Position numbers and translations under genes: made by a program. From positions 36,474-100,473 of the forward strand of contig JAGGVJ010000040.1 in NCBI GenBank assembly GCA_021158055.1: 64,000 bases of DNA, in the 5' to 3' direction. This document shows, piece after piece, positions 1,283-49,760 of the stretch. This stretch comes from Candidatus Iainarchaeum sp. GTDB taxonomy: Archaea > Iainarchaeota > Iainarchaeia > JAGGVJ01. Within the stretch, counting starts at the first letter, position 1. Each line of letters opens with the position of its first letter. The notes beneath the pieces are model-generated. The model was not told where the DNA came from. It did no database searches and was given only the letters and a program-made list of their open reading frames with translations.

Positions 1283-1786
1283 ATGGCAAGACAAAACGTG
1301 GATCTTGATATAGTGCTGAGCCAGCTAAACAATGACATGCGTGCGCTTGACACAAAAATAGCGATAATTGTGCAGAGAATCAAATACGTTGAAAAACACG
1401 AGAAAATCCTTGCCCAAAACCTCATCAGCTTAAACAACAAGGTAAAAGAACTGGAGTCCGGTGCCGGCAAAACCACCCAGGACAAAAATGAATCAGGGTT
1501 TGGAAAAGAACCCGCAAAAGCTGTTTCAAAAGTGGCGGTCAAGGAACTTGAAAGCGTAAAAAAGGAACTTGAAAACCTGAAAAAAATCGAGGGGCTGGTA
1601 AAAGAAAATTCCTCGAAAAGCAAGGAAATTTTGATTGAACTCAAAAAAATGAAAGACGATTCTGTAAATATTCAGGACTTCAACCAGTTGCGTTACGTGA
1701 TAGACACTGTCAACCCGCTTCAGTTCATTACTTTTGACCAGGTAGAAGAACTGATTGAAAAAAAATTCAGGGAAAAAAAACTTTAA
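1283..1786 (+). CDS. Soluble coiled-coil protein of unknown function
   Basis: 167 aa, heptad-like K/E-rich helices, C-terminal LRYVIDTVNPLQF motif; AT-rich upstream region shared with polB. Confidence 0.75.
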   Translation: MARQNVDLDIVLSQLNNDMRALDTKIAIIVQRIKYVEKHEKILAQNLISLNNKVKELESGAGKTTQDKNESGFGKEPAKAVSKVAVKELESVKKELENLKKIEGLVKENSSKSKEILIELKKMKDDSVNIQDFNQLRYVIDTVNPLQFITFDQVEELIEKKFREKKL

Positions 1787-1860
1787 ACACAAAACTTCGC
1801 TTTATTCCAGCCAAATATCCCAATCAAAACCTTTCCCGTTCAACAAGACAAGCAAACTGC

Positions 1861-3405
1861 CTATTTTTCAAACCTGCTTAAAGTGGGCCTGACCTTAACG
1901 CGGTAAGGCCGTCCTGCAACTTCTTTTACCGCGACCTCTCTTTCCGCGATCACTTCAATGTCCAGTGTGGAGGACTCAACCATCGAACGGTCAAGATGAT
2001 GCCTTGTTTCGGCAAGGTAACAGCACCCAAGCCCGTAGTTTTGGCATTCGCCGCTCAGTTTTATGAATTCCGACTGCATTACTGTCGGGTTTTCACCAAA
2101 CATCAATTCAGAGTGGGGTATGACCACGACTCCCCCAATGCTTTTGCTGTGGTTTTCTTTTTTGAACTTTTGAAGCACAATTTCAAGAACAGAATAAACC
2201 ATAAGCACGCCGACTTCTGTGGAGTAATCTGAAAGGTCTACGTGGGACACCCTGCCCATCGAGCCCCTCCATCCGCCAATGATGTCATCAACCTGGTTTT
2301 TCCCTCCAAAGGCATTTTCGTTTGACTTCTCAATCACTTTCAAAAACCTTACCGCGCGGTTTATCTGGAACCTGTTCCCTTGTTTTCTTTGAAGCTTGTC
2401 AAAAATTTCCTTGACTGAAGTAATTGACCCTTTTGACTCAAAAATTGTTTCCTCGATGAGATTGGCTGCCTCGTTGTCCCCGAGGTTGAACGCCTGTGAA
2501 AAAACCCCTTTCGGCAGCAAATTTAAATCCACGTGAATGTCTTTTCCCGCAACAAATTTTTTTGTCGGAAACCCGATCGGCTCAAGGTCTATTTTTGACT
2601 CCGCAAACTTTGAAGTGTCGTTGGAAGGCAAAGATATACCCTTGAACTCCGCGTCCATGTCAAAAATCAGTGCAGGAACATTGTTCAGCAAAGATCCTTC
2701 TGCAATCACTTGTGTCACTGCGGCGCGGTTGCTCTTAAGGGAACCTGAAATAACGGCTTTCAAAAGCGACTGCACAGAAATTTTTGCAATTGTGCTGTCG
2801 GAAGTAAGGCCAAAAACAAACTCTCCCGCAATTATTTTTGATTTCGTGCCTTTGATTGACGCCGGATACGCGCCTGTATCCGTCGCGGATCTTACGGCTG
2901 CAGATGCGACAATCATCAAGGGTTCTGAATAAAACTGCATTTCAGCAGCTTTTCCCGCTTCCTTCAGTGAAGTGAATTCAATATTGTATGCTTTTCCTAT
3001 TTCTTTTATGGAAACTGAAATTGATTCAAGGTCTTTGTTCATTTCCTGCACGGCGTTTGACAGCTCTTCTGACTCAAGCCCGACGTATTTCGGGTAAGCG
3101 GGAATCACCGCAAACTTGAATGACTTGTCTTGCGTGTGCTTTTCAACAATGATTATGTCGCGTTTTATGGCGGATGCAAAGTGCTGCACGTCACCCACGA
3201 CAGTGTATATCTTGTTGAACATTACAACCATTCCCTTAAGGCTCTTGCCTTTCCCGTCAAACACAATAGTTAAAGTGTCCTTGTCCGGGTTTTGATACAC
3301 CATAAGAGAATTTTTTTGAAATTCCCCTGAAAAAAGTTGTACCCAGGGGCCAAAAGGCAGTTTTAGTATGTTCATTTTATCACTTGAGTCATATCCTTGC
3401 GTCAT
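1861..3405 (-). CDS. HerA/DUF87/DUF853-like P-loop ATPase fold, apparently inactivated
   Basis: AVISGSLKSNRAAVTQVIAEGSLLNNVPALIFDMDAEFKG aligns by eye to the HerA-like hhhGxTGxGKT..QVLAE....GVPVhhhDxKGDhSG block; Walker A Lys and Walker B DE are missing (VVVIPHSELMF). Confidence 0.65.
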   Translation of the reverse strand: MTQGYDSSDKMNILKLPFGPWVQLFSGEFQKNSLMVYQNPDKDTLTIVFDGKGKSLKGMVVMFNKIYTVVGDVQHFASAIKRDIIIVEKHTQDKSFKFAVIPAYPKYVGLESEELSNAVQEMNKDLESISVSIKEIGKAYNIEFTSLKEAGKAAEMQFYSEPLMIVASAAVRSATDTGAYPASIKGTKSKIIAGEFVFGLTSDSTIAKISVQSLLKAVISGSLKSNRAAVTQVIAEGSLLNNVPALIFDMDAEFKGISLPSNDTSKFAESKIDLEPIGFPTKKFVAGKDIHVDLNLLPKGVFSQAFNLGDNEAANLIEETIFESKGSITSVKEIFDKLQRKQGNRFQINRAVRFLKVIEKSNENAFGGKNQVDDIIGGWRGSMGRVSHVDLSDYSTEVGVLMVYSVLEIVLQKFKKENHSKSIGGVVVIPHSELMFGENPTVMQSEFIKLSGECQNYGLGCCYLAETRHHLDRSMVESSTLDIEVIAEREVAVKEVAGRPYRVKVRPTLSRFEK

Positions 3406-3586
3406 TCAGCAGACAAATCAATGCCAACATAATATAATGCCGGCAAATACACTTGTTTTTTATAATTATTGTAATTTATATATAGTTATATGTTTAAAAT
3501 TTTTCATGGTTTATTCAACAAACCTGTTAATAAAATGTTTATTAATCTTTTAAATATGTCTGATGTATATATCTTATGTGGTTAAC

Positions 3587-4519
3587 GTGAGCAACATTGA
3601 ATCCATCATAAAAACGATGATTAAATCAGGTTCTTCCCCTGAAAGCGTGCGAAACACTCTTTTGGAAATGGGTGTTTCAAAAGAGGCAATCGAAAACTCC
3701 TTTAAAAATGAAAACACAGCTGCTGCACAATCACCTCAAGCAACTGATCAAGCTTCACAGCCTGCGCCGGACCAGCAACCTTCGTCATCAATTGACCTTT
3801 CAAACTTTGAGCCTGCAAAAGAAACCATTGCGCAAACAAGCGACAATGCTGCGCAAACAAGTGAAAGTGCTGCACAGCCAAAGGATAACATTGCCGGATC
3901 ATCTCAGCCGCAGCCGGTTCAGCCGCCTTCGCTTCAAAAAAAACAGGAAATGTTTCCAGCAACCAGCGAACCGCAACCAACGAACAACGAACCGCAATCA
4001 CCCGTAGGCCTGTCTGAAGCCACCAAACCTGTAGAAACAGCAGGCGGTTCTGCTGACACTCAAAAATCCCTTGACATAACTGACATGGACAAAAAACTTG
4101 CAGAGCTAAAACAACAGGTTGAGTCCATACCGGTTGACAACATAACTTCAAGCATGGAACTGCTTAGCCAGGAAAGAAGCGAGGGTTTGTCAGAACACAG
4201 CAAGATCATTTCTGAGCTCAGTGAAAAGGTCTCGCAGGTCCAGGACAAGATTGATTCAAGTTCACCTGACAACATTAAAGAGCTTACTTTGGCTGTGGAC
4301 GACTTGAGAAAAATGCTGAATGAAATGAAGCCCATGGTATTTGCCCTTCACGAGATCGACAAAAAGATACTTGACACAAACAGGGAGGTCCTTTTTGAGC
4401 TTGCTGAAAAAATCCACGCCCAAAAACAGGAAAACCCGGTAAAAAGCAATACTGCTTCAACACCAAAGCCTTCGGTTGCAGAAAAGGAAAAAACCAAAAA
4501 ATCCGTTAAAAAAAACTGA
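3587..4519 (+). CDS. Hypothetical protein: small N-terminal helical domain, P/Q/S/T-rich linker, C-terminal coiled coil
   Basis: ORF 3563-4519, likely GTG start at 3587; IIKTMIKSGSSPESVRNTLLEMGVSKEAI followed by a low-complexity linker and heptads. Confidence 0.75.
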   Translation: MSNIESIIKTMIKSGSSPESVRNTLLEMGVSKEAIENSFKNENTAAAQSPQATDQASQPAPDQQPSSSIDLSNFEPAKETIAQTSDNAAQTSESAAQPKDNIAGSSQPQPVQPPSLQKKQEMFPATSEPQPTNNEPQSPVGLSEATKPVETAGGSADTQKSLDITDMDKKLAELKQQVESIPVDNITSSMELLSQERSEGLSEHSKIISELSEKVSQVQDKIDSSSPDNIKELTLAVDDLRKMLNEMKPMVFALHEIDKKILDTNREVLFELAEKIHAQKQENPVKSNTASTPKPSVAEKEKTKKSVKKN

Positions 4520-6028: not shown

Positions 6029-9000
6029 TCATTTAGCAAATCCTCTTATGAACTCAACAATTATTTCATCCAATTCATCTTCACAGGCATCCAATTCCAG
6101 ACCCTGCCCACTGTTTATAAAACATATCTCCGGCGGTCTTTCATCACCATAATCCTTATCTTCGCACACCGGTCTTTCGTCTGAACCCATACTGAATATC
6201 AACCCCGTGATTATCAACTCACTGGTTGGACTCAAACTGTCATCTTTGTTTCTCCTGACTACTTTTACCGGCGTTACTGTATTTGTCTTTCCGATGTCTG
6301 ACATTTGCTTCCCGTCAATACTAACGTCTCCTTCAAGTATTTTAAGATACTTTCTCTGAATGTTTTCTACAACTTCCTCTGAACTGCCTTTTACAACCAC
6401 TGAAACTTTCTGGCCTGTTCCCGCGGGAGCAGAAGGATTCCAACTCATGATTGCAAAAATTCCGTCGTATTTATTGATAAGATTCACTACTCTTAAACAC
6501 GCGCTTTTATAGGCATCATCTTCCTTTTCACAACGGTTTTCATCAAGATTTTCCCCTACATACCTTGCAAACAGATTAAATTGACTGTTACCGGAGGCAC
6601 GCGACGGTGAAAGATTTCCTGCCAATCCCTCAATGCCCTCAATCCCAGCTGTGTTGGAGTATTCAACATCAAACATCTCCTCAAAAGGCAAGCTGTATGT
6701 TCCTTTCTGCACGCCGGAACCGTCACTAAGCGGCGCAAAAAACAACGGGAAATACTTCGGCAGGTTTATCACGCCGAAATTGCAGTTGTAAGTGGACTTG
6801 CTGTCAGCTTCCTTTCTGTCAACTTTTACGATATAGCTGTTTTCACCATCCCTCGTGTAAATCCTTTTCCAGACACCGCAGGACATCTTTTTCGGACTAA
6901 CCTCAAATTTGATTGACGTCGGGCCTGGACTGCTTATGTCACTTCCAACAACAAAAATTTCCTTGTCCCAGCTTAAAAGTTTAAGGCGCGCAGGAGAAAT
7001 TCCCCCGAGTTTAAACGGGGATTCCCCCCGATCATCTCTGAACACACCCAATGCAAGAGACATAATCCCATTGTATTCCTCATCTGTAAAAGCAAATTTA
7101 AATTCATTCTCGTGAATATTAGCTCTTTTCAAATTTCCGCCATCCAACGGAGAACTGAAAAGGAAAAGATACAATTCGTTCAAAAGCTTGAAAGTTGTCT
7201 GGTCGCAGTAATGCGTGTTGCATTCCCTGAACAGTTTGGAAATGTCTTGCGCTGAAAACCCTGAAACTTCACTGCCGTCGTCGTCAACAATTATTTTGTT
7301 TCCGTTGAACATCGCAGCAACTTCGCTAAACCCCCTGCTGTCTTCTTTCACCTTGAAATTGCCGCCCGAGGTTTTCTCAACCGGCTGGTCTTCCAGTGCT
7401 TCTTCCCCGAAAATCGTGGCGAAAAGAGAGTCGTATTCAATAGTGCACTCTGTTCCGATTACGTTCACCCTGAAATCTGCAATCTTATTTTCAGGTTCGC
7501 TGAATCCTTCAAGAAGCTTTGTTTCACCCCGACCGACAAAAGTTTCAGAAAGGTCATAACCGTAATTGGTTGTGCCGGAAGTCGTCGAACTCTCAAGGAA
7601 ACGAACTCCCTGCTTTCCTTTGTTCTGCGCCTTCAGCCCTTCTTCGGAGTTGATGAAAATAAGTGTCGAGTTCAGGTCAGAGCAATTCAGATATTTCTTT
7701 TTAAAAACATGGCTGCACTCTGTAGCCGCTTCACTTTCTTCTTCTCTTTTCATGCTGTATTCTATGCTGAACTCTTCTTCACTTTCACCGAAACTGACAA
7801 AAAGAAGATCAGATTTCCCGGATTCAATAATCACATCCTTGTCAGTCCCTGCGAAATTCGGATTTTTCGTTATTGTGACTTCTGCATCTGACTTGTTGTC
7901 AATAAACAGGCCGCCCAGCGAGTCGCTCAACTCAAACGATACCTTGTCGCACAGCTCGCTTCCGTAGACACAACCGTCGTCACGGTTAACGTTCACGGTT
8001 ACTTTTTGTTTCGGGGCAGTTTCTTTTGATTCGCCGATGTAGATTGCAAGCACCCACTTGCCGTTGTCGTCAGTCAAATCGTCACTCACTTCCGCTTCCA
8101 GTTCAAACGTCTTTGCCTCGTCAATCAACAGTTTGTGTTCCTCGCTGAACTCTTCAAGAACTCCTTCTTTTTCAGCTTCTTCGTCATCGCCGGTAACTAT
8201 CTCAAGAATCGTTGCAGTGGCCAAACCCTTGTCTGATCCTTCCTCGTCTTCACCCGGCAAAAGCTTGAAATACAGGTCAATGGCGTCTTCTGAAATGTTT
8301 TTCAAATCAAACTTGATTGACTCTGTTTTTTTGTCCTGCATGCACATGTTGTCAAAAGAAATGCTTTCAATGGAGGTTTCAGTGTTTTGCTTGAGCACTT
8401 TCACGTAACTTTGCCCGCTTTGCGGTGAAATGCTCACTGAAACAGGCAAAGTGGCTTCAACAGGTTCGCCTGAACAGTCAACTGTAAGAACATACTGCCC
8501 TGAAACAGCCAGATTGCCTGTTATTGCCTTTTCTTTGTCTATTTCCGCCACAAGTTCAATGTCTGTAAGCGCGCTGCTTTTGTCAGTCCATTTTGAAAAC
8601 GCTGTTTCAATGTCCCCTCCGGAGCTTTTGCTTCTAAGCAACACGTTCAGCTCAAAATCACCCGCGACAGTGTCGCCGCTTAAAACAATGAATTCCTGGC
8701 CTGAAAACGAACTGATGTTGCAGGAACAAACAGTTTCTATTTTTATCCCCTGCAGTATTTTTGACCTGTTGCCGGAATCAAGCAAAAATTCTGCTTCCTG
8801 ATCGCCTGAACCGTAAGATATCCTGAAGCAGTCGGAAGAACCGTGCGCAGTCACTTTGAACGGCAGGGTTGTAATATGCAGCTTGTTGTCGCTGTCTGAT
8901 TTGCCTGCAACGAAAACATATCCTTCAAAGCTTGGATCACTTGCGGTTTCAACGCTCACCCACGCTTTCATCTTGAAATCAAGAGTGGAGCCGTTTTCAA

Positions 9001-40060: not shown

Positions 40061-40208
40061 TTTTTCACCTTAATCTGCTGCGAGTTCAAAAACAAAAATC
40101 TTCAAAAACGCTTTATATGCATTAATAAAAAAATATGATTCAATATAATAACATTGGCATTCAACCCTGATAACATCGGCACTCAACGCTGAAAACATTA
40201 AGTTGCAT

Positions 40209-41224: not shown

Positions 41225-42068
41225 TAAAAACAGGGGTTTTTGAACGGATAAAACACAAAACACCCAGGTCAATCAACGGAAAAACAACTGCGGGAATTAA
41301 GAGCGCCTGCATGGGAGTAAAAGACAGGTAAAGAAAATTTGAGCCGACAATAATAAAAGCCTGAAAAAGCGCCGGCACTATTGCTGAAACCGCAATAAAA
41401 ACAAGCGAAAACACAACCAATCTGCCGTTGTATTCAGTCATTTCAGATTTTTGCTTTGAAAGCTGTTCCTGCGCAACAGCCTTCAGCGGTTCTCCCGCGG
41501 TTCCTTCATCTGGTTTTCCCTGCTCGTACACTGAAATCATGTGGCGAACACATCTTTTGAGATAAACTGAATCAACGCGCTCCCCAAAACCATTTAACGC
41601 GGACTGCACCGAAGCACCTGCAACACGAATATCCAAAAGCACGATCCCCATTTCTTTTCCGGCTTCCCCAAAAGACGGGTTGGCTGCGTTTTCAAGCACT
41701 TTTTCAAACGGAAGATTCACATTTATCTCAATTGCCATCGTGCGAAGAAGAAGAGGGAGCTCTGACTCAATTTTTTTTCCCCTGATTTTTTTAAGGCGGT
41801 TTGGGTAAAAACTTAACCCAAAAAAGTACACGGCAAAAAACAGTAGCGAAAAAACAACAGGGAAAAACACAATACTCAGCCACAACGACACCACTGAAGA
41901 AACAAAAAGAGAAACCAGTACGGCAACCAAAATCACTGCCGAAACAAATGAATCCACACTGCTGTCAATCCCCGCCTGCAAAAGGTCTTTTTTCAGTTTT
42001 TCTTTTCTTTGCGCAGAACAAAAAACTTTCAAAAAACCGTTTTTTAATGCAACTTCCAAGCCACTCAT
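41217..42068 (-). CDS. TadB/TadC (T2SS-F) family membrane protein
   Basis: LKKDLLQAGI, IESELPLLLRTMAIEINVNLPFEKVL; likely start MSGLEV (ORF extends to 42146). Confidence 0.85.
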   Translation of the reverse strand: MSGLEVALKNGFLKVFCSAQRKEKLKKDLLQAGIDSSVDSFVSAVILVAVLVSLFVSSVVSLWLSIVFFPVVFSLLFFAVYFFGLSFYPNRLKKIRGKKIESELPLLLRTMAIEINVNLPFEKVLENAANPSFGEAGKEMGIVLLDIRVAGASVQSALNGFGERVDSVYLKRCVRHMISVYEQGKPDEGTAGEPLKAVAQEQLSKQKSEMTEYNGRLVVFSLVFIAVSAIVPALFQAFIIVGSNFLYLSFTPMQALLIPAVVFPLIDLGVLCFIRSKTPVFMK

Positions 42069-42111
42069 AACAACACCCGCCCATTCACAACAACACCTGT
42101 CCTTTGCTGCC

Positions 42112-43926
42112 TCAAACATCCCCTGCATCAAAATAAAACCCGCCATCGCTATTTTTCAGAACAAACCTGAGCTTTTTCTTTGCGTGCTTCAGTTTTTCCG
42201 CAAACTTTTCACCGCGAAAGGCCATTTCAACTTTTCTTTTTATCACAACACTGCTGCCTGCTTTTTTCAGTTTCCCCTTTGAATGGTCAAATTCAAAAAC
42301 AGTGTTGATTTCAGGGGCACCGTCTTTGCTTCGTTTTATCTCGCTTATCTCAACAATTTTCCTGACCTCTCTTTTTGCCTCTTTGCTGAACTCAGTCCAC
42401 CTTCTCTGAACCACAATCAAGTCAATTGACGGCAAATCAATCCCAAGCACGCCAAGGTTTTTCAGCCTGAGAAGCGCTTCCGAAGCGCTTTGCGCGTGAA
42501 ACGTGGCAAAAGACCCCTTGCCCTGGCCGGCAAGAACAGTATTCATGAACGCTTTTGCCTCGCGCTCATCCCGCACCTCACCCACTATTACGCGGTCCGG
42601 GCGCATGCGCAAAGAGTCAAGAACCAGGTCACTCATGCTCACTTTCAAAGAATCATTTACTGCCAGACGCACCACGTGAGGGTGAGGCAGGTTTATCTCC
42701 GGGGTTTCCTCTGTAACTATTATTCTTTCGTCAATAGGAACAAAAGAAAAAAGAGCATTCAAAGTAGTGGTTTTTCCCGAACCCGTGTTTCCTGCAATCA
42801 CCATGCTTGAATCTACAAGCATTGCAAGACACAAAAAACTCATTGCGTCCAGGTTAATCGTCTTGCTGCTGATTAAATCAGCCGGCGTAAACGGCTTGCT
42901 TCTAAACTTCCTTATTGTCAAAACACAGCCGTCAAGCGCAAGAGGAGGGATAACAGCATGCATTCTCGAACCGTCTGAAATGCTTGCGTTGAGCCTCGGG
43001 GTTGTGAAAGTGACTCTCCTTCCAAGCGACCTCGCCATCTTATTTATCACTGCAATGGTTTTTTCGCTCCCTGTCAAAAAAAGGTTTGTTGCAAGCCACC
43101 CGAAAGAATTGTGAAAGACATAAACGGGTTTCTCGTCGCCTATCAATGCAATCTCTTCAATTTCATCGTCCTTCATGAGGCAAGAAAGCGGCCCGAACCC
43201 TGTTATTTCGTTTTTTATGATTTCAAACAGGTAACTCTCCTGAAAATCATCAAGCTCCAGGCAAAGCGCGTCACAGTACCCTTCAAGCAGGTGTTTCAAA
43301 TCCATTTCAATGTTGCTGTCTTCTTTGGCCCTTATTTTTTGCTTGTATTTCAAAAGGATGTCTGAAACAATTTTTGCTTCGCTTCCGCTGAGCTCCGGAA
43401 CATCAACGATTTCGTAAAAATTTAACTGGCAACTGCTGCCGTGGCGGTTATCAGCGAAAGCGTTTCTTGCTGAACAAATTATTCTGGATTCGTTTTCCTT
43501 AAGCACAAGCGGGCGTTTGCCTGAAGAACGCGGTTTTATTTTCCAGCCAAGAACTTTTTCAGGCGGCAGCTCATCTGAAAAGTCAACGCTCAATGCATTG
43601 ACAGGGCAGACCTTCACGCACTCGGGAAACTGCCTTGACATGCACAAGTCGCATTTTATTAAGTGGCCTGGTTTTATGGCTTCAAAATCACATTTTACGG
43701 TACATTCCCGACAAGTTGCGCATTTTTTCGTGTCAAGCACAAGCACTCCCTGAAACGATTCAAAAAAAGCGTTTTTCGAGCATGTTTTCCTGCACAATGC
43801 AGTGTCCGGATCGCAGTGCTGGCACTCAAATACCATGTATTCAGTGGGTTTGTTCGGACACGCGTCCAGACACTTTCCGCACTTTATACAAATATCAGAA
43901 TCCCGCCTGATTCTCATTTCCCGCAA
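42112..43926 (-). CDS. CpaF/VirB11-family pilus ATPase fused to an N-terminal 16-Cys multi-[4Fe-4S] ferredoxin domain
   Basis: CIKCGKCLDACP, CQHC..CRKTC, CATCRECTVKC, CDLC..CVKVCP; Walker A IAGNTGSGKTT, LRMRPDRVIVGEVR, ATFHA. Confidence 0.9.
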   Translation of the reverse strand: MREMRIRRDSDICIKCGKCLDACPNKPTEYMVFECQHCDPDTALCRKTCSKNAFFESFQGVLVLDTKKCATCRECTVKCDFEAIKPGHLIKCDLCMSRQFPECVKVCPVNALSVDFSDELPPEKVLGWKIKPRSSGKRPLVLKENESRIICSARNAFADNRHGSSCQLNFYEIVDVPELSGSEAKIVSDILLKYKQKIRAKEDSNIEMDLKHLLEGYCDALCLELDDFQESYLFEIIKNEITGFGPLSCLMKDDEIEEIALIGDEKPVYVFHNSFGWLATNLFLTGSEKTIAVINKMARSLGRRVTFTTPRLNASISDGSRMHAVIPPLALDGCVLTIRKFRSKPFTPADLISSKTINLDAMSFLCLAMLVDSSMVIAGNTGSGKTTTLNALFSFVPIDERIIVTEETPEINLPHPHVVRLAVNDSLKVSMSDLVLDSLRMRPDRVIVGEVRDEREAKAFMNTVLAGQGKGSFATFHAQSASEALLRLKNLGVLGIDLPSIDLIVVQRRWTEFSKEAKREVRKIVEISEIKRSKDGAPEINTVFEFDHSKGKLKKAGSSVVIKRKVEMAFRGEKFAEKLKHAKKKLRFVLKNSDGGFYFDAGDV

Positions 43927-43935
43927 AGCCCCAAG

Positions 43936-44322
43936 CTATTGCGCCCGAGTCTCAAGCACATCGTTTATTTTCAAATTTTTTGCCATCCCCGCAGGCAGCT
44001 CCACAATATACTTTGCTGCCTTTTCTGGAACTACCATGGGGGTAAACGGCTTAATATTCCTTTTGATGTCCACTATTTTCCAGGCGGAATCCAGGAAAAC
44101 AACGTCAATTGAAAAAAACACAAAAAACATATGTATTGCCGCATCAAGCCTGGCTTCGTAATCAAGCACAAAAATAAGTGCATGGTGCGTTTTCCCCCTA
44201 AACATCAGGCCCCTCATTCTCTGAAAAAACGTAAGCGCCCACTCGACCTTGCCTGAAATCAGTTTTTTGTCGCTTTTTCTGAAAAGAGCTTTGTTGTTTT
44301 TACTTTTATTGTTTGGATCCAT
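43936..44322 (-). CDS. DUF192 family protein
   Basis: RMRGLMFR, IHMFFVFFSIDVVFLD, YIVELPAG. Confidence 0.9.
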   Translation of the reverse strand: MDPNNKSKNNKALFRKSDKKLISGKVEWALTFFQRMRGLMFRGKTHHALIFVLDYEARLDAAIHMFFVFFSIDVVFLDSAWKIVDIKRNIKPFTPMVVPEKAAKYIVELPAGMAKNLKINDVLETRAQ

Positions 44323-44353: not shown

Positions 44354-45583
44354 TCACGTGAGCTGGACGTACCATTTCTTGTCCTCGTAAAGAAGTTCTA
44401 TGAAAACTTCCGCCGGCTTAACCACTTTTACATAATTCGGCCTTACGGCCAGGTCGCCCTGCTTGCACGGAACGCAAACACCCGAGTCCCGGAAAGCAAA
44501 ATCATTACTGACTAATCCTTTTATCCACTGGTCATATGGCTCTGCTGTCTCAGACATTTTGTTAAGGTGCCTTGAAATGTCCTCGCGGTGAATATCCTTT
44601 GTCAGGTAATACGAGCCGATTGCAACTTTCATGTCTTCAGAGCCTGGTGGAAGAATCAAAACCACTTCCGATATTCTTGCAACAGGATTCGGAACCGGAA
44701 CAAAGAACTGGAAAACAAAAAACCCAATAAACACCAGGATAAAAGCGTGTTTCAAACCCGCAATGGCCCTTCCTTCACTCATAATTCCCGCGACAAGCCC
44801 GTTGAAAAAAGCCTGTATGAGCGCCAGATTCATCAAAAGTGTCCTGAAAGACCCTTCAGATATTACTGCCCCTCCGCCGAGAATCTCTTTTAATCCTGCC
44901 ATTCTGGGAAGCGCGGGAATAAACCCCAACTGAAGCACGGCGACAATTCCAAGAAACACGACGTAAATAAAATACATGGTATAAGTGTATATCTGAAGGT
45001 TTCCTTTTCTTTCAGCTTCAAGCTGTTTGATTTTTTGCGCGTCAATCGCAACGGTTTCAAGAATGTCTGCAATGGATCCCCCTGAACGGTGGGCTTCAAG
45101 AATAATCGAAACAGACCTTTTTATTATCTTGCTGTCTGTCCTGTCCGCAAAATCTTTAATGGCTTTTGAAAACGGAACCCCCCAAGAAATCTGGTTTGAT
45201 ATCTTTTTCACTTCAATAGACAAATCACCATAATAAGTAGTGCTTGTGGCGTAAACTGCTTTTGGAAGAGTCATTCCCGCCCGTTTTGATTCCGAGATAT
45301 CCCTGAGAAAAACCGGAAAACTCTCTTCAATTCTCTCAATCCTCATATAATCGTTGTACTTGTGGTATGCAAGCGGCCCAAAGCCTACTATCAACCCGAT
45401 AAAAACCCAGTTGAAAAACGAATCTGTTCCAAAGAAAAACAAAAACGCCACCAAAAGCGAGATAATCAACATGAAACCGCCGAAAATATAATACAAGTGC
45501 TCGGCTTTCAGCTCAAAGCCGTACCTGCTGGCAAGATTCTTTGCTTTTGACCAGTACTCTTGTGACAACGCGTAAATATCCAT
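44354..45583 (-). CDS. TadC/FlaJ-like membrane protein with C-terminal extension
   Basis: IEESFPVFLRDISESKRAGMTLPKA, YGDLSIEV, QISWGVPF; extra ~110-aa C-terminal domain with CVPC. Confidence 0.88.
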   Translation of the reverse strand: MDIYALSQEYWSKAKNLASRYGFELKAEHLYYIFGGFMLIISLLVAFLFFFGTDSFFNWVFIGLIVGFGPLAYHKYNDYMRIERIEESFPVFLRDISESKRAGMTLPKAVYATSTTYYGDLSIEVKKISNQISWGVPFSKAIKDFADRTDSKIIKRSVSIILEAHRSGGSIADILETVAIDAQKIKQLEAERKGNLQIYTYTMYFIYVVFLGIVAVLQLGFIPALPRMAGLKEILGGGAVISEGSFRTLLMNLALIQAFFNGLVAGIMSEGRAIAGLKHAFILVFIGFFVFQFFVPVPNPVARISEVVLILPPGSEDMKVAIGSYYLTKDIHREDISRHLNKMSETAEPYDQWIKGLVSNDFAFRDSGVCVPCKQGDLAVRPNYVKVVKPAEVFIELLYEDKKWYVQLT

Positions 45584-46479
45584 TACACCACTTCTTTTGG
45601 TTTGCTTGAGTCAAGCAACAATATAAACAATACTGACATCGCCGGTATTACAAGATAAATTGTCAGCTCAAGAAGAGCTTTTCCCCCGATCGGGAGGTTT
45701 AAACCCCCTATGATTGACATTATGGCAAGCATGACTATAAAAAGAATCGGGGCTGCCACAAACATTGTCGTGTATATCTCGGAAAGCATGGAAAGGGTTT
45801 CAATGTAATCTCTTTCAATCCTTCTGTGCTCTTCAAGCATGATCTTTGCCTCTTCGTTGAGGTAATCTCTTATGACCCCTCCGGAACGGATAATTGAAAC
45901 TACCCCCCAAAGTACGTCAGAAAACTTTTTTGACGGGCACTTCATTGCAACTTTTTTCAGTGCAGTGTTTATGTTGTAACCGAAAATTTGCGTGTTTCTG
46001 ACTATGTCTTTGCATTCCCTTGAAATTTCCTTGTATTCATCAAACTTTGACATCAGCTCAAACACTTTGTCCGGGGGGATTCCCGTACCTGCAATGGTTG
46101 CCATGTGGGTTATGGCATACGGAAGGTCCCCATCTATACTTTGCTTGCGTTCATTTATCCTGTAAGTCGGGTAAAAATAAAAAAACATAAAAAAAATAAT
46201 GCCCATTATGAAAGCACCGATTACAGCTGTTAAAAACATAAGCATGCTTATCATAAAACCAAAAAACACCAACAGGAAAAATATTAAAAAAAAAGACGCA
46301 ATAAAAACAAAAACTGAAGTTGCAAGAGACCCTGCCACATACTCTTCACTTGTCATGAGTATTTTTGCACTGCGCAGGCTGCCCTGAAGGTCCCCGAAAG
46401 AAGGCATTATTATATCAACATAGTCTTTCAGTCGCCTGTATGCTGCCAACCTGTATTCTCTCGGAAATATCATTTTCAC
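45583..46479 (-). CDS. TadB/TadC/FlaJ-like membrane protein
   Basis: IDGDLPYAITHMATIAGTGIPP, CPSKKFSDVLWG, LSMLSEIY. Confidence 0.88.
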   Translation of the reverse strand: MKMIFPREYRLAAYRRLKDYVDIIMPSFGDLQGSLRSAKILMTSEEYVAGSLATSVFVFIASFFLIFFLLVFFGFMISMLMFLTAVIGAFIMGIIFFMFFYFYPTYRINERKQSIDGDLPYAITHMATIAGTGIPPDKVFELMSKFDEYKEISRECKDIVRNTQIFGYNINTALKKVAMKCPSKKFSDVLWGVVSIIRSGGVIRDYLNEEAKIMLEEHRRIERDYIETLSMLSEIYTTMFVAAPILFIVMLAIMSIIGGLNLPIGGKALLELTIYLVIPAMSVLFILLLDSSKPKEVV

Positions 46480-46526
46480 AACTCACATGTGCTCCTGATT
46501 CACTCTCCCGGATTTTTCAAACACAT

Positions 46527-48935
46527 TCACATGTTTTTGAGTATTTCATCCGGGTTCTTATAGTACGTATTTATAATTTTTCCAACTTCCTTGTAATACC
46601 TTATATTTGATTTTTTCATCCAGTCAAGAACTTCGGCGCGTCTTCTAAGCTCAGCCCACAATGATTCTTCAGAAGTTCCCTTTTGCTCAATAATTTTATT
46701 TAATATATACGACTTATCAGAAACAAAAGCAAAAGTGTCATCAGTCGGGTTCCATTTCATAACTGTATTTGTTATCGGTTTCCCGGTGTCAATATCTATT
46801 CTTATGATTTCTATGAGTTCAGTTACGCGCCTTACTTCCATTTGTTTTATCCTGGTGTGATGCATAAACAAAACAAGGTCAAGACTGCTTAACAAACCAA
46901 GAGGCAGGTTGATTGGCTTTGTAATAAGCCTGTTAAGAAGCTCTGAAAAGTCACCTGCGTGAATCGTTGCCATTCCGGGGTGTCCGGTTGCCATTCCCTG
47001 GAAAAGGACGTTTGCTTCCACCCCACGCACTTCCCCCACAATTATCTCATCAGGCCTCTCCCTTAAAGCCGCTTTAAGCAAGTCAAACATGGACACTTCA
47101 CCTTGTCTTTTGCCCGTGACATCAACTGATCCAAAACCGGTCCTGATGACTTTCGGCACCCAGTTCTCGTGCGGAAGGTTAATCTCGGGAGTGTCCTCAA
47201 TCGAAATAATCTTTATCCCCGGAGGCAAAAGCATTGAAATCGAATTCAGAGTGGAAGTTTTTCCGCTGGCAGTTCCACCGCTGATCAGGAGAGACTGCTT
47301 GTATTCAACTGCAAGCCACAGAAAAGCAACCATCATGGAAGGTATTGTTCCCGAGCTTATAAGGTCGATCACAGTCAAAGGGTCTTTTGTAAATTTCCTA
47401 ATAGTAAACGTTGAGCCCTTCATGGAAATTTCATTTCCGCTGCTGTACGTCGCCTGCACCCTGGAACCGTCTTCAAGCGAACCGTCAAGAAGGGGGTCAG
47501 CAACACTTATGTGTCTTCCGCAGCGCTGGGCAAGTTTTATCAGGTATGAATTCAAGGATTCCGTATCAATAAATTTTTTGTTTGTTTTTATGGAACCGTA
47601 TTTCCTGTGGAAGATATAAATAGGCAGGTTTATTCCGATGCATGAAACGTCCTCTATCTCCTTGTCCCTCATAAACGGCTCAATAATCTCCAGCCCGATG
47701 AAATCCCTTTCAATATAATACTTCATTTTTTCGTACTCTGATTTCGTGAGAAAAATGGCGTAATCCTGAATTATGCGGTCCATCTTATTGTATATATAAT
47801 CGCGGATTTTTTCCTCTTTTTTCAGTTCAAAAAGGTTCACATCCAAAAAGTCAATCAAAAGGGTTTTTATACGATCCAAGGTCTTTTTTTCTCTTTCCGT
47901 TAACGGCGGCTCGAGAACATAGTACATTAAACCGTTTATCTGATCAATCCATTTTATATTCGAATACGCATACGGCTCAATAAGCGAATATTTTTCGTCG
48001 ACTTTCTTCAAATCAACCGGCTCCCACTCGCTGGACATCTTTTTTATCAGGTCTTTTGGTATCCTGTGCATTGTTTCAGGAAGGTTTTTCATACCCATTT
48101 TATTGACTATAAAATCAGCTTCCCCCTTGCCCACTGCTTTTATCTGGCTAAGGTCAATTTGCTGGTATACTTTTGGGGACCGTGAAAAAACAACCATCGG
48201 AACAGTCGGCGCAGCAACTGAAGCTACAGGGGCAACATCACCGCGTGAAGCAATAGCACCTTCCGCTCCTTTAAAATACCCCTCCAAAAAGCCCTGGTTT
48301 TGAACTTTACCGGTAGTAATTTTTCTGCCCCCCTGCTTCCCGGAAAATCCAAGAGCAGACGGCTTGGGCAAATCGCTTTTGCTATCGCCGGAACCCGACT
48401 CTTCAAACAAAGTATTCTCTTTAAGATATTCAAACGGATTCTTTTGAGGCCCCCTGGCTTCTCCGGCTTCCGTTTTACCTTTTTTTAGTTTTTCATTCAT
48501 TTCTATGATTTCAGGCATGAAAAAATCCGGCTCGTCAAGGTCAATGCTGGAGTCAATTTTTGCTGCCTGCAAGTCAGATTTTTCCGGTGTTTTTCCATTT
48601 TCGTCGTCAAACATCTGTTCTTCTGAAACAACTGATTCAACAACTTCTTGTTTCAGTGGCTCTTCAGATTCTTCTTGTCTTGCTGTTCTTTGCCAATAGC
48701 CTTCAGGGGGTTTTTCAATAACCATTTTTTTGTAAAGGTTATCTGTCAAAGCGCTTCGCTTTTTTGAAGAAGCTGACCTGTACACTACAACAGGTTTTTC
48801 CTCAAACGACGACTGCACGTGTCTCTTGCCTGAATATTTGCGCGGTTTCGAAACCCGTCGCGCAGCTCCGGAAATAAGTTTTCTCGCTACTTTTTTGTTT
48901 ATCTTTTTTAAAATACCGTTGTTGATTTTAGCCAT
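46527..48935 (-). CDS. FlaI/TadA-type pilus assembly ATPase with long disordered N-terminus
   Basis: ISGGTASGKTS, SIEDTPEI, LRERPDEIIVGEVRG, ATGHPGMATIHA. Confidence 0.92.
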   Translation of the reverse strand: MAKINNGILKKINKKVARKLISGAARRVSKPRKYSGKRHVQSSFEEKPVVVYRSASSKKRSALTDNLYKKMVIEKPPEGYWQRTARQEESEEPLKQEVVESVVSEEQMFDDENGKTPEKSDLQAAKIDSSIDLDEPDFFMPEIIEMNEKLKKGKTEAGEARGPQKNPFEYLKENTLFEESGSGDSKSDLPKPSALGFSGKQGGRKITTGKVQNQGFLEGYFKGAEGAIASRGDVAPVASVAAPTVPMVVFSRSPKVYQQIDLSQIKAVGKGEADFIVNKMGMKNLPETMHRIPKDLIKKMSSEWEPVDLKKVDEKYSLIEPYAYSNIKWIDQINGLMYYVLEPPLTEREKKTLDRIKTLLIDFLDVNLFELKKEEKIRDYIYNKMDRIIQDYAIFLTKSEYEKMKYYIERDFIGLEIIEPFMRDKEIEDVSCIGINLPIYIFHRKYGSIKTNKKFIDTESLNSYLIKLAQRCGRHISVADPLLDGSLEDGSRVQATYSSGNEISMKGSTFTIRKFTKDPLTVIDLISSGTIPSMMVAFLWLAVEYKQSLLISGGTASGKTSTLNSISMLLPPGIKIISIEDTPEINLPHENWVPKVIRTGFGSVDVTGKRQGEVSMFDLLKAALRERPDEIIVGEVRGVEANVLFQGMATGHPGMATIHAGDFSELLNRLITKPINLPLGLLSSLDLVLFMHHTRIKQMEVRRVTELIEIIRIDIDTGKPITNTVMKWNPTDDTFAFVSDKSYILNKIIEQKGTSEESLWAELRRRAEVLDWMKKSNIRYYKEVGKIINTYYKNPDEILKNM

Positions 48936-49016
48936 CAGAGAAACTAAATGGTTTTGAATTAATATTTGTTTTGATTTTTTTGAAAAAATAACAAAAATAC
49001 CTAAAAAATCAACGGC

Positions 49017-49760
49017 TCAAAAACTTATGGATCCAATTATTGAAAAAATAATAAGAAAAAGCAGATTTGTTGAGAAAAAAATTGAAATTATGTAACCTGC
49101 AAGCAAGGCAAACATAAACGGCGGAAGAGGGGTTACCCAGACAAGGTCTTTTATCTTTTTTTCTGCAACAAGTTTCTTCAGACGCTCAAATTCATCGTCA
49201 GGGTCAACGTTTGGAACAAGATCAACCTGCCTTTTTCCTTTCCCGTCAAAAGAAACTTTTTCAAGCGGAGAAACAAAACTGTTGCATTTAATTGAACTTA
49301 TTTTTACAGGATAACCAATAAAATAAAACAACGGGTTTTGCGGTTTGTTTGCGCGAAACAAATTCCATGCAAAAACACACACCGGGACTGCAACGGCACT
49401 CAAAAGCAATGCATTTACAAAAACCGACAACGAAAAATACACGGTTTGAGCCGGACTTGCAAACTGGTTCAGGGAAGCAACTGCAACAAGGGCTTTTAAG
49501 TCGCCCCCTCCGATATAAAGAATGGGAAAAATTTCCCCTGCCTTATGCAAAACAAAAACAAAAACAAAAACAAGCCCTGCTGAAAAAACGAACGCCTGCA
49601 TTACCTCAACTTTAAGTGAAGCAAGCGAAAGCAACAAGCCGACGGCAACTGCGATCACCCAAACCTTATCCGGAACCTCGCGAAATTTAAAATCAAACAC
49701 ACTTGCGACCGCAAGCATCAGAACAGTAAACGCAACGGAAACAAAACCAAATAAAAACAT
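49017..49760 (-). CDS. A24-family prepilin/prearchaellin peptidase (FlaK/PibD-like)
   Basis: Catalytic Asp motifs SVFDFKFREVPD and IGGGDLK; C-terminal VWVTPLPPFM. Confidence 0.88.
   Translation of the reverse strand: MFLFGFVSVAFTVLMLAVASVFDFKFREVPDKVWVIAVAVGLLLSLASLKVEVMQAFVFSAGLVFVFVFVLHKAGEIFPILYIGGGDLKALVAVASLNQFASPAQTVYFSLSVFVNALLLSAVAVPVCVFAWNLFRANKPQNPLFYFIGYPVKISSIKCNSFVSPLEKVSFDGKGKRQVDLVPNVDPDDEFERLKKLVAEKKIKDLVWVTPLPPFMFALLAGYIISIFFSTNLLFLIIFSIIGSISF

Follow-up and report, generated by a model that had tools for sequence, protein, structure and literature searches.

Among archaeal type IV filaments (T4F), 'System 2' (Sivabalasarma and Albers, 2026, PMC13705601) corresponds to clade 2 of Makarova, Koonin and Albers (2016, PMC4858521). 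In the portions of the 2026 account drawn on here, System 2 occurs mainly in Methanobacteriati, and its loci pair an N-extended ATPase with a single platform gene, many pilins and adhesin-like proteins of large size; in DPANN archaea an ordered T4F locus is rare and the identity of the system mostly ambiguous (PMC13705601). The Epd pilus of Methanococcus maripaludis represents 'System 1', whose pilins are counted in 1,990 DPANN genomes in the same portions of that account (PMC13705601).

A further comparison comes from the sorting of surface proteins. In Haloferax volcanii, ArtA and the PGF-CTERM S-layer glycoprotein form a system of an archaeosortase and a large secreted protein with a tripartite tail.

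The island described here encodes a pilus-like machine of type IV, complete yet highly divergent, together with adjoining giant surface proteins and a small putative sorting enzyme. In locus content, which is the level of this comparison rather than ATPase phylogeny, it shares with System 2, as described in those portions of the account, an N-extended ATPase, a one-gene platform and several pilin-like proteins, along with accessory membrane proteins and large proteins that resemble adhesins. In contrast to System 2, its pilin families match no curated pilin model, its platform (~750-810 aa) is weakly T2SSF-like, its 764-aa ATPase (ATPase764) scores far below every curated equivalog, and it has in addition a mini-archaeosortase, a 1,500-aa protein that is putatively sorted, and between 1 and 7 giants in each genome, which have a common N-terminal module. 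System 1, as far as the same portions describe it, has two platform genes, which fits the second and third cores of the present locus and not the ATPase764 system; it is without an archaeosortase and without a giant family sharing an N-module, whereas the island has both. Like the ArtA system, the island combines a membrane enzyme of the exosortase/archaeosortase family with a secreted protein that carries a C-terminal motif, a transmembrane (TM) segment and a basic tail. Unlike in that system, the enzyme measures 162-213 aa, and its scores against the three named subfamilies with a match fall far short of their cut-offs; the signal is (N/L)(L/I)PS(L/I)PE rather than PGF, and none of these proteins matches a curated CTERM model.

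A paralogous short system occurs in the same class (G010, G014) and was detected in 6/40 relatives. Its parts are an ATPase of 555-575 aa, a fused platform of 622 aa and 5-6 small proteins with one TM segment. Between residues 309 and 734 this ATPase shares 38-39% identity with ATPase764; a CxxC motif is present in its N-terminal part, and the platform is likewise a single fused gene (21% identical to that of the island), followed by a run of pilin-like ORFs. In contrast to the island, the short system is without an N-extension of the same 290-aa length, and there are no giants, sortase or sorted surface protein nearby.

Extent and gene content of the island

The window, that is, the whole stretch of DNA analysed, is 64,000 nucleotides long. 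A preliminary description had assigned it to a DPANN archaeon, which agrees with its best relatives being titled Ca. Iainarchaeum, Diapherotrites or AR10. It had also read about 48 kb of the window as one cell-surface locus. This reading is supported in part: the conserved island spans ~6.0-44.3 kb and does not extend to the left end (1283-4519), which goes with DNA polymerase B (PolB), or to the module of the 802-aa ATPase and its peptidase. Every gene class listed in that description was located in the region, and its statement that archaellin, ArlH and relaxase genes are missing is borne out by 0 Pfam matches to archaellin, KaiC/ArlH-type or relaxase families among the 40 ORFs scanned. The features are as follows:

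1283-1786 and 3563-4519: coiled-coil proteins (coiled coil judged by eye)
1861-3405: dead HerA-like protein, 514 aa (among HerA/DUF87 clusters in the ESM Atlas, top score 0.96)
6029-12268, minus strand: giant surface protein, 2,079 aa (Pfam CarboxypepD_reg E 3.8e-22; N-module HMM E 2e-30)
12404-12835, minus strand: small polytopic membrane protein of 143 aa, encoded between the giant genes (hydrophobic segments)
12900-21197, minus strand: giant surface protein, 2,765 aa, coiled-coil-like C-terminus (same N-module, TM segment and Ig-like repeats)
21370-23166, minus strand: large pilin-like protein of 598 aa, counted from MKKGFTLF..., whose C-terminal part is rich in Cys
23249-23890, minus strand: mini-archaeosortase, 213 aa, transcribed divergently from ATPase764 (TIGR04178 33.8 bits, cut-off 23)
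23864-26158, plus strand: T4F motor ATPase (ATPase764), 764 aa, ~290-aa N-terminal extension (Pfam T2SSE 69.6 bits)
26115-28370, plus strand: fused, enlarged platform protein, 751 aa (divergent T2SSF)
28367-32330, plus strand: seven consecutive pilin-like genes ([K/R/H]G junction, then hydrophobic stretch): pilA 28367-28861, pilB 29036-29461, pilC 29517-29816, pilD ~29821-30396, pilE 30393-31070, pilF 31051-31638, pilG 31629-32330
32379-33941, minus strand: membrane protein, 520 aa, N-terminal TM segments, charged linker, C-terminal Zn-ribbon (weak zinc-ribbon matches)
34145-34408, plus strand: remnant (C-terminal half) of a 5-TM ~180-aa protein (HMM positions 94-175 of 179, E 6e-11)
34446-38801, plus strand: surface protein, 1,451 aa, Sec signal peptide and C-terminal motif/TM/basic tail; candidate archaeosortase substrate
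39305-40060: PAC2 proteasome-chaperone gene, inside the island
40209-44322, minus strand: second T4F core (Pfam)
40209-41150 and 41217-42146, minus strand: T2SSF genes of the second core (Pfam)
42112-43926, minus strand: ATPase of the second core, 604 aa, N-terminal 4Fe-4S domains (Pfam T2SSE)
43936-44322, minus strand: DUF192 (Pfam)
44354-49760, minus strand: third T4F core (Pfam and NCBIfam)
44354-45583 and 45583-46479, minus strand: T2SSF genes of the third core (Pfam)
46527-48935, minus strand: ATPase of the third core (ATPase802), 802 aa (T2SSE; 412 bits against 2OAP)
49017-49760, minus strand: A24 class III signal peptidase (Peptidase_A24 41.1 bits, Arc_PepC_II 59.8 bits, both above cut-off)

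The island holds a T4F core (the N-extended ATPase764, the fused platform and seven pilin-like genes), around which lie the mini-archaeosortase, the single-copy surface protein, two giant N-anchored Ig-repeat proteins, next to which the 598-aa pilin-like protein is encoded, and a second ATPase accompanied by two platform genes. The copy in the window is a reduced or divergent version: it is without a 'giant 1' paralogue, its 5-TM gene is a remnant, and it departs from the consensus in the Cys motif of the ATPase, the CTG motif of the sortase and the sorting signal.

Two sets of unrelated genes stand within the ~48-kb region, PAC2 (39305-40060) and the PolB-linked block (1283-4519). The latter travels with PolB and not with the island; it borders the giants and is 20-53 kb from ATPase764 in 12 of 14 same-contig cases. 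Its HerA-like protein has no Pfam or NCBIfam match, and its family likeness comes from ESM Atlas features alone. The Walker A P-loop has the form GxxGxGK[ST], which is degenerate in all four aligned orthologues (SGSLKSN, FGGREHD, TDGEEKD, TDGEEKD). In the genome G028 this protein adjoins PolB, ~96 kb from the motor.

The accessory genes keep their places to different degrees. The position of the 520-aa membrane protein between pilin genes and surface protein is kept in 4/5 syntenic genomes (tblastn; in G024 it was found by ORF-level blastp), and the protein lies within 10 kb in 13/25 loci. A full-length 5-TM protein stands ahead of the surface-protein gene in 5/5 syntenic genomes and in G012, PAC2 lies inside the island in 5/5 syntenic genomes, and the order ATPase, T2SSF, T2SSF, PAC2, surface protein recurs in 5/6 genomes. 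The ATPase802/peptidase module is missing from this position in G020 and G024, the two relatives with a readable flank, where UppS is close to DUF192.

The divergent filament core

The three T2SSE ATPases of the region (23864-26158, 42112-43926 and 46527-48935) score 69.6, 121.4 and 109.3 bits against the Pfam model (cut-off 24.9). ATPase764 has invariant Walker A (GSRGSGKS) and Walker B regions in an alignment of 7 orthologues, and its best solved relative is 2OAP (113 bits). Against curated equivalogs all its scores are far below cut-off: the FlaI model gives 140, 186 and 418 bits for the three ATPases (cut-off 550), and the scores of the ATPases against the TadA, TrbB and VirB11 models are likewise far below the respective cut-offs. 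An archaellum was considered and rejected, given that FlaI stays below its cut-off, that the best Arch_flagellin score anywhere in the genome, 20.9 bits, is under the cut-off of 29.5 bits and that the 40 ORFs hold no KaiC/ArlH-type family.

A single gene codes for the platform protein, and its orthologues have 10-13 hydrophobic segments by count. Pfam T2SSF matches 5/6 of these orthologues (best E 7e-6), the window's own protein reaches 15-19.8 bits, under the cut-off of 25.2, and hhalign against T2SSF298 gives E 1.2e-4. Seven pilin-like genes follow, with class III-like junctions identified by inspection (RGQ, KGQ, KKG, HGQ, RG, KG and RGQ); together with the 598-aa protein they bring the pilin-like proteins to eight. 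Among Pfam and NCBIfam models for pilins or class III signals, none gives a match to any of the seven. Six family HMMs built from relatives each recover 37-62 of 80 related loci, across which the class III-like N-termini are conserved. Six of the seven window ORFs match these HMMs, but the window proteins were among the seeds and their scores are therefore not independent. The families are many, distinct, separately conserved and minor-pilin-like, with no obvious major pilin among them. The pilin-like proteins thus carry candidate class III signal peptides, conserved by inspection and in these HMMs, and would be cleaved at the G junction. Four A24 peptidases are encoded in the window's genome, none of them inside the conserved core.

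A hexameric-type secretion ATPase whose N-terminal extension is specific to its family, a single fused double-T2SSF platform and seven pilin-like families are the parts of the machine. The module at 23.8-32.3 kb, described before as a dedicated pilus or T2SS-like machine, is indeed complete and dedicated, and of T4F type. By sequence, the ATPase764 system appears to fall within the archaeal T4F kind as a divergent form.

The putative sorting enzyme, the surface protein and the giants

The mini-archaeosortase, one of three exosortase/archaeosortase (TIGR04178) proteins in the window's genome, was rejected as a member of ArtD (20.2 bits against a cut-off of 125), XrtH (20.1 against 86) or ArtB (17.2 against 150), since its scores are far under each cut-off. 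The motifs C(T/S)G..E, N..RI and H(D/N).LFR are kept in a 67-sequence consensus (LCtGllE, fN..RI, f.Hd.LFR) and read ICSGDLE, FNPVRI and THNTLFR in the window; their conserved Cys, Arg and His we take to be the catalytic residues.

Of the 121 genomes of the class, G000 counted, 116 contain the surface protein, each as a single match except G122, which has two. The C-terminal half is beta-rich in an AF2 model with a mean pLDDT of 60. All 29 orthologues carry the motif, TM segment and basic tail, the motif being PS[LIM]PE in 27 and PSLP[TP] in 2; the window's own motif is LPLFPQEP. A PSLPE-type motif occurs in no other ORF of the window's genome. One 1,335-aa protein with a similar PE.NP tail is the sole other weak candidate there. 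Enzyme and surface protein appear to be a one-enzyme, one-substrate pair, and the conserved tail gives good support to the view that the mini-archaeosortase would process and anchor the ~1,500-aa protein via the PSLPE-type signal. In G028, the two genes are ~200 kb apart.

Both giants begin with a ~45-aa cytoplasmic module, followed by one TM segment and CarboxypepD_reg/Ig-like repeats. They are paralogous over ~1,180 aa (23% identity, E 6e-49), and the 2,765-aa protein corresponds by position to 'giant 2' of relatives. A junction of the form (K/R)G|IP(S/A)(F/L)P has G at -1 in 42/42 orthologues of 'giant 1' in which the motif occurs; the window's own giants have neither such a class III-like G junction nor a C-terminal sorting signal. 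Giants were found in 40/41 genomes, and of the 80 that share a contig with ATPase764, 70 are no more than 60 kb away from it. Their combined length is ~12,000-16,000 aa in most of five complete or near-complete relatives, or ~3-4% of a ~1 Mb genome. A homologue of the 143-aa membrane protein also sits between giants in G006 (35% identity, E 1.8e-11).

The 598-aa pilin-like protein has the N-terminus KKGFTLFTPLVG, and the motif (K/R)(G/A)F(T/N)LFTAL is found at 29/29 orthologue loci. An AF2 model, confident at residues ~20-245 only, has a 74-residue N-terminal helix followed by beta-sheet. Fold matching of this protein and the surface protein gave no usable match, the models being of low confidence. 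In 7/7 genomes examined, G012 included, its gene separates giant 1 from giant 2; in the window it is beside the giants, not between them.

Conservation, proposed mechanism and alternatives

A full-length orthologue of ATPase764 is present in 34 of 40 related genomes from 15 families (48-58% identity), and 257 relatives were found among species-representative genomes. The platform is directly 3' of it in 63/66 loci, with the sortase within 6 kb in 27/29, a giant within 8 kb in 23/28 and pilF within 8 kb in 23/28. In most loci the sortase lies between motor and giant 1 (within 3 kb in 42/53). The whole gene order is kept in 5/6 genomes from different families, and at six loci with rearrangements the modules have changed sides yet are still adjacent. 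As controls, the housekeeping genes of the right flank (PHP, NTP-transferase, GHMP kinase, GlmS) are near the island in 0/6 genomes and UppS in 2/6. The complete genome G012 has ATPase, platform-pilin-surface-protein block, giants and sortase at four separate places; platform, pilins, 5-TM protein and surface protein are still together. Co-occurrence and linkage in related genomes had been set as a check on the preliminary description, and the genes do co-occur and remain linked, with no refutation of it on this point.

In the mechanism proposed here, A24 peptidases would cut the pilin-like proteins after the [K/R]G junction, and the ATPase-platform motor would extract the cut pilins from the membrane, to be polymerised into a multi-subunit surface filament that may serve adhesion. 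The mini-archaeosortase would anchor the ~1,500-aa protein, by analogy with ArtA and the S-layer glycoprotein of Haloferax. On weaker support, the giant Ig-repeat proteins, with their N-terminal anchor, may be long adhesive fibres of the same apparatus, and the 598-aa pilin-like protein could join them to the filament. The phylum-wide arrangement is probably the adhesion apparatus of these archaea. We hold this explanation as a whole, in which ~6.0-44.3 kb is an Iainarchaeota-wide cell-surface island, with moderate confidence. Host attachment, penetration or tunnelling, as had been proposed, finds no support here.

That the machine 'presents or drives' the giants, as the preliminary description put it, is suggestive only, because long-range gene order is generally conserved in this class; conserved adjacency, the pilin-like gene between giants and the (K/R)G junction in giant 1 hint at such a coupling. 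The window may instead hold several independent surface systems that are neighbours by descent only: an ordinary adhesive pilus operon, Sec-inserted, signal-anchored giants that are adhesins or resemble S-layer proteins, one pair of sortase and substrate, and two more pilus cores, all free of mechanistic coupling. This we consider rather unlikely, although several observations lean that way. The unrelated PolB block and PAC2 are conserved in the same neighbourhood, so adjacency is weak evidence of coupling; all parts are retained in G012 despite their dispersal, the surface protein is parted from the sortase in G028, and the window's giants have no class III-like G junction. Descent alone fits less well with the pilin-like gene that separates the first two giants even in G012, with modules that stay adjacent in the six rearranged loci, with right-flank housekeeping genes that are not conserved beside the island, and with the recurrent place of the sortase between motor and giant 1. 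A reading in which the giants are cargo of the pilus machine, with the ~45-aa N-module as an oversized class III-type leader that would be cleaved at the (K/R)G|IP(S/A)(F/L)P junction and the 598-aa protein as an adaptor loaded with them on the filament tip or side, is improbable.

It is quite improbable that the seven pilin-like proteins form a T2SS-like pseudopilus, a short envelope-bound piston that pushes or assembles the surface protein, the giants or both, which is the 'drives' form of the preliminary description. The many conserved minor-pilin-like families without an obvious major pilin would suit such a piston, as would the block of platform, pilins, 5-TM protein and surface protein that holds together even in G012, and in the portions of the account drawn on here S-layer-like proteins in T4F loci are proposed to prime the envelope for filament passage (PMC13705601). 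Pilus and pseudopilus are not distinguished at the sequence level. Giants and surface protein each start with an N-terminus of Sec or signal-anchor type and therefore need no extra exporter. A T2SS-like secretion function has, to our knowledge, not been demonstrated so far in any archaeon. A machine for DNA uptake or transfer (Com- or conjugation-like) that uses the HerA-like protein and VirB11-type ATPases is already disfavoured and very improbable. The ATPases do score against TadA/TrbB/VirB11 models, though far under the cut-offs, and a HerA/FtsK-like protein lies within the ~48-kb region; but its P-loop is degenerate in every orthologue aligned, it goes with PolB and is remote from the motor in G028, and the 40 ORFs scanned contain no relaxase, VirB4 or coupling-protein family (Pfam).

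We know of no cultured member of the Iainarchaeota. Outside the housekeeping genes, few features of the phylum are as conserved as the island, and, with giants that make up ~3-4% of the genome in most of the five relatives, it is an obvious molecular handle on contact with surfaces or partners. The locus is ordered, complete and phylum-wide, yet built from pilin families that catalogued models miss. It offers a small archaeosortase subfamily that is new, has one candidate substrate for one enzyme and goes with a new type of C-terminal signal; a likewise new N-terminal module by which a giant-protein family can be recognised; and defined targets for antibodies, proteomics and cryo-ET in enrichments. 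If the giants were cargo of the machine, a type IV filament would extend adhesins of 2,000-3,400 aa towards other cells, and in the window one would see a reduced variant, natural in origin, from which giant 1 has been lost.

Gene content and the type IV filament core

The window (G000:C36:36474-100473) lies in a genome, G000, of 1.15 Mb in 45 contigs that is 95% complete. Its gene map is based on an ORF listing with Pfam and NCBIfam scans of 40 ORFs, and all gene classes named in the preliminary description are found. Genome-wide, G000 encodes seven T2SSE ATPases, nine clear T2SSF matches, four A24 peptidases and three archaeosortase-family genes, with no archaellin above cut-off.

Features of the window (coordinates, strand, description)
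3-1001, minus: N-terminus of DNA polymerase B (PolB)
1283-1786, plus: cc167, a 167-aa coiled-coil-like protein
1861-3405, minus: p514, a 514-aa protein without a Pfam match
3563-4519, plus: p318, a low-complexity, coiled-coil-like protein
between 4519 and 6012: two small TM proteins and a Cys-rich protein
6029-12268, minus: giant of 2,079 aa
12404-12835, minus: small polytopic protein
12900-21197, minus: giant of 2,765 aa
21370-23166, minus: 598-aa pilin-like protein, N-terminus KKGFTLFTPLVG
23249-23890, minus: 213-aa archaeosortase-family protein
23864-26158, plus: ATPase764 (T2SSE)
26115-28370, plus: 751-aa polytopic platform protein
28367-32330, plus: seven small ORFs (pilA to pilG)
32379-33941, minus: TM and Zn-ribbon protein
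34446-38801, plus: 1,451-aa secreted surface protein
38798-39223, plus: 141-aa protein
39305-40060, minus: PAC2, after the gene of the 141-aa protein
40209-44322, minus: second core (T2SSF, T2SSF, 604-aa ATPase fused to 4Fe-4S domains, DUF192)
44354-49760, minus: third core (T2SSF, T2SSF, 802-aa ATPase, A24 peptidase)
49878 onward: housekeeping genes (UppS, GGR, PAC2, PHP, NTP-transferase, GHMP kinase, GlmS)

The motor protein, ATPase764, has full-length orthologues in 34 of 40 relatives, spanning 15 families at 48-58% identity (in four cases the orthologue is fragmented over contigs or pieces); no orthologue is found in G004, G007, G013, G017, G018 and G025 (79-95% complete). Species-representative genomes contain 257 relatives, the best 80 of which share 54-62% identity along their full length. 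The closest come from Ca. Iainarchaeum, Diapherotrites or archaeon GW2011_AR10, which identifies the source of the window as a member of the Iainarchaeota, a DPANN lineage. Walker A, Walker B and the downstream motifs are invariant in an alignment of seven orthologues (mean column identity 72%). Among solved structures, A. fulgidus GspE (2OAP, 113 bits), FlaI (82) and CpaF (77) come closest, and in the NCBIfam scan the protein falls far below every curated equivalog cut-off. The N-terminal ~290 residues constitute a family-specific extension. Searched against 1.84 billion proteins, the profile of this extension has matches in 293 clusters (50% identity) at E ≤ 0.001, of which 39 reach E ≤ 1e-30; ten second-tier clusters examined are labeled Ca. 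Altiarchaeales (2), "archaeon" (1), "bacterium" (1) and, by product name only, "flagellar protein FlaI" (2), the other four being nameless. The distant Altiarchaeales-labeled homologues (clusters of P0139 and P0144) are 701-727 aa long at E ~1e-12, and the label is possibly loose. The Altiarchaeales are known for hami, grappling-hook appendages with no known assembly machinery. Some orthologues of ATPase764 are much longer and match in pieces within one open frame (a 1,361-aa frame in G022:C14; P0005, P0012, P0047, P0050 and other representatives of 1,264-1,783 aa), an arrangement consistent with inteins. In the window, the N-terminus (23864-24000) is without the C-x2-C...C-x2-H motif carried by all six other aligned orthologues and retains only its third Cys.

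The 751-aa protein is, judged from its sequence, a divergent, fused platform. Pfam T2SSF matches five of six orthologues (best E 7e-6), and the window copy scores 15-19.8 bits, under the cut-off of 25.2. By hhalign, the orthologue profile aligns with T2SSF298 over 191 columns (E 1.2e-4); the second half aligns with T2SSF409 unconvincingly (E 0.045). Among the ATPase764-bearing loci of relatives with at least 2.5 kb of flank, 63 of 66 have the platform gene downstream of the ATPase gene in the same orientation.

The seven small ORFs, pilA to pilG, show the junctions RGQ, KGQ, KKG, HGQ, RG, KG and RGQ, each followed by a hydrophobic stretch, and match no curated pilin model in Pfam or NCBIfam. 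HMMs built from six genomes, with the window proteins among the seeds, recover six separate pilin-like families in 37-62 of 80 ATPase764-bearing loci, many of which are limited by short flanks. The N-termini are strongly conserved, with the consensus KGQAFSVFKLLIAAVVA in pilB, GQE.APFELL in pilD, MLGF.LSK.NLLILV in pilE, KGFIGPIGDDLPSLIPL in pilF and KGQAAVTDAL.FL.IV in pilG, and conserved Cys residues occur in the C-terminal parts. A second, weaker set of pilD-, pilE-, pilF- and pilG-like ORFs is located at G000:C13:14258-16491 (HMM E 1e-17 to 2e-6); that contig yields no T2SSE match.

Comparison with described filament systems

Published surveys offer a partial frame for this arrangement. 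The text available from Makarova et al. (2016, PMC4858521) mentions neither DPANN nor Diapherotrites nor archaeosortase, while excerpts of Makarova et al. (2019, PMC6393860) report type IV pilus islands with unrecognisable pilins in some DPANN genomes. According to the accessible part of Sivabalasarma and Albers (2026, PMC13705601), an ordered type IV filament (T4F) locus is rare in DPANN and the identity of the systems mostly ambiguous. The defining features of the "System 2" in that excerpt are ATPases with an N-terminal extension, one platform gene, and numerous pilins along with large adhesin-like proteins; the authors propose that ATPase extensions serve as contact surfaces for partners specific to each subsystem. 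In its described features, the ATPase764 system resembles System 2; the second and third cores of the window, with two platform genes each, resemble System 1. Among the papers listed by the literature searches, none describes the island itself; such loci may appear in PMC13705601 (tables S4 and S5) or in figures of PMC6393860.

The ATPase of the second core (42112-43926, minus strand) carries N-terminal 4Fe-4S ferredoxin domains. Its orthologues in five relatives are 445-555 aa long and align only from residue ~123-176 on, and a word-based search with the Fer4 region returns the protein itself and one 77%-identical protein only. Co-occurrence of Fe-S proteins with Aap-type pili is noted in the accessible text of PMC13705601. 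A compact paralogous system is present in some relatives, among them G010 (C4:24000-43999) and G014 (C7:19000-30259). Its ATPase of 555-575 aa has an N-terminal CxxC motif, its fused platform is 622 aa long, and 5-6 ORFs with one TM segment each complete it; neither giants nor a sortase occur nearby.

Surface proteins: a putative sortase-substrate pair, giants and a pilin-like protein

The small archaeosortase matches the TIGR04178 signature (33.8 bits, cut-off 23) and lies under the cut-offs of all three named subfamilies that matched. The consensus of 67 sequences retains LCtGllE, N..RI and H.LFR, and the window copy has CSG in place of CTG. The 1,451-aa surface protein matches once per genome, or twice in the case of G122, in 116 of 121 class genomes with a completeness of at least 85%, G000 counted. 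In all 29 orthologues read, the C-terminus combines a motif with a hydrophobic stretch and basic residues; the motif is PS[LIM]PE in 27 and PSLP[TP] in two, and LPLFPQEP stands in the window protein. A scan of G000 for C-terminal TM segments with basic tails finds no second protein with a PSLPE-type motif; a PE.NP tail that is similar occurs in a single protein, of 1,335 aa. Together, the enzyme and the surface protein look like a dedicated enzyme-substrate pair. The giants were considered as further substrates and ruled out because they have no C-terminal TM signal.

For the surface protein, ESM Atlas gives no usable hit, and a word-based search with the C-terminal half returns the protein itself and, beyond it, just one partial protein at 81% identity. 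No fold is assigned to this half, since Foldseek with its AF2 model (mean pLDDT 60) returns beta-propeller-type hits only, with TM-scores ≤0.16. Next to this gene, the window retains only the C-terminal half of a 5-TM gene (34145-34408). Just upstream of the remnant, a 21-bp unit recurs 3.2 times (34013-34080) in the AT-rich intergenic stretch 33942-34445. Further intergenic direct repeats of 21-29 bp in 2-3 copies occur at 23185-23230, 28879-28954, 29456-29502, 40138-40199 and 41151-41213; the one between two T2SSF genes is a 24-bp unit x 2.6 with 100% identity. These short repeats, ahead of several island genes, may be regulatory.

The 2,079-aa and 2,765-aa giants are paralogues. They share the N-terminal module FY...E.KYY..LD.LD.KGIPVY..ID.IE.K.IPSFP followed by one TM segment; in G000 the module is found in these two proteins only. 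Counting G000, 40 of 41 genomes encode 1-7 such proteins. Most are 1,300-3,450 aa long, and some ORFs are shorter or truncated. An IP(S/A)(F/L)P-type motif is present in 42 of the 43 giants adjoining the motor in the 80 loci; position -1 is G in all 42, and K, R or H occupies -2 in 36 of them. In form, this is what a prepilin cleavage site would look like if the conserved leader before it were unusually long. Across the window and five relatives, G is found at the junction of 6 of 17 giants, comprising five copies of giant 1 (the giant next to the sortase) and one other giant of G006, and the two giants of the window read KN. By position, the window is without giant 1: the pilin-like gene directly follows the sortase there. 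Within the gene of the 2,765-aa giant, an 18-bp unit repeated 5.7 times at 96% identity (16018-16120) encodes a six-residue tandem protein repeat.

The 598-aa protein encoded among the giants carries the motif (K/R)(G/A)F(T/N)LFTAL in all 29 orthologue loci. Its AF2 model (mean pLDDT 49, confident for residues ~20-245 only) consists of a 74-residue N-terminal helix and then beta-sheet, a predicted fold that is pilin-like in outline. A search of the PDB with the model gives nothing at E ≤ 0.001, and pilin chains turn up only at E 0.2-0.3.

Linkage and boundaries of the island

Gene order is kept in five of six genomes from different families (G003, G006, G020, G024, G036) and reads (DUF192)-ATPase-T2SSF-T2SSF-PAC2-~1,500-aa protein-5-TM protein-Zn-ribbon protein-pilG...pilA, then platform-ATPase764-sortase-giant 1-598-aa pilin-like protein-giant 2-(small TM protein)-giant 3 and further giants. 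Across the 80 ATPase764 loci, the sortase is located ≤3 kb upstream of the ATPase in 42 of 53 loci and ≤6 kb on either side in 27 of 29. Within 8 kb are a giant (23/28 loci), pilF (23/28), pilB (21/28) and pilD (20/28), and within 10 kb the Zn-ribbon protein (13/25). Modules are still adjacent in six rearranged loci (L043, L055, L085, L098, L099, L103). In the 32 genomes with a placeable ATPase764, 80 of 122 giants share its contig, 70 of these 80 within 60 kb. One or more giants lie within that distance in 25 of the 32 genomes.

The complete genome G012 retains all parts of the island unlinked, with the sortase at 73 kb, five giants at 233-276 kb together with the pilin-like gene, the platform, pilA to pilG, 5-TM protein and surface protein at 339-352 kb, and ATPase764 at 709 kb. 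In G028, motor, sortase and giants are together and the surface protein is ~200 kb away. In these data three blocks always stay whole: the platform and the pilins, the 5-TM protein and the surface protein, and the giants and the pilin-like gene. The window copy deviates from the consensus in the ATPase Cys motif, the CTG of the sortase, the sorting motif and the 5-TM remnant, though the genes are still intact ORFs.

Long-range order is conserved for unrelated genes too, as the PolB block borders the giants and lies 20-53 kb from ATPase764 in 12 of 14 relatives having both on one contig; PAC2, inside the island in all five syntenic genomes, makes the same point. The left end of the locus as first proposed (1283-4519) belongs to that separate block, because PolB is the constant neighbor of p514. 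ESM Atlas places p514 as HerA/DUF87-like (0.96, 10/10 best hits in one clan), with a P-loop degenerate in four of four orthologues, and the gene is single-copy in 38 of 41 genomes (G000 counted). In three of three loci examined, cc167, p514 and p318 occur together, and PolB is in the fetched stretch in two of them; in most relatives where both are found, PolB is within a few kb of p514. The p514-PolB pair of G028 lies ~96 kb from ATPase764. The proposal that p514 and the two coiled-coil proteins are parts of the apparatus is rejected, as they form a block of their own with PolB. This class-wide block (PolB-cc167-p514-p318, window 3-4519) may represent a replication- or chromosome-associated complex.

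The right end of the preliminary locus also has to be drawn in. The third core, with its ATPase and peptidase, is not at that position in G020 and G024, where UppS is close to DUF192 instead, and does not count as part of the conserved locus. PHP, NTP-transferase, GHMP kinase and GlmS are near the island in none of six genomes, and UppS in two.

Between these narrower boundaries, the observation of a cell-surface locus is confirmed and its interpretation partly supported: the T4F machine is real, as is its phylum-wide linkage to the sortase, the sorted surface protein, the pilin-like protein and the giants. Mechanical coupling of the machine to the giants is inference, and so would be any role of the island in contact with a host.
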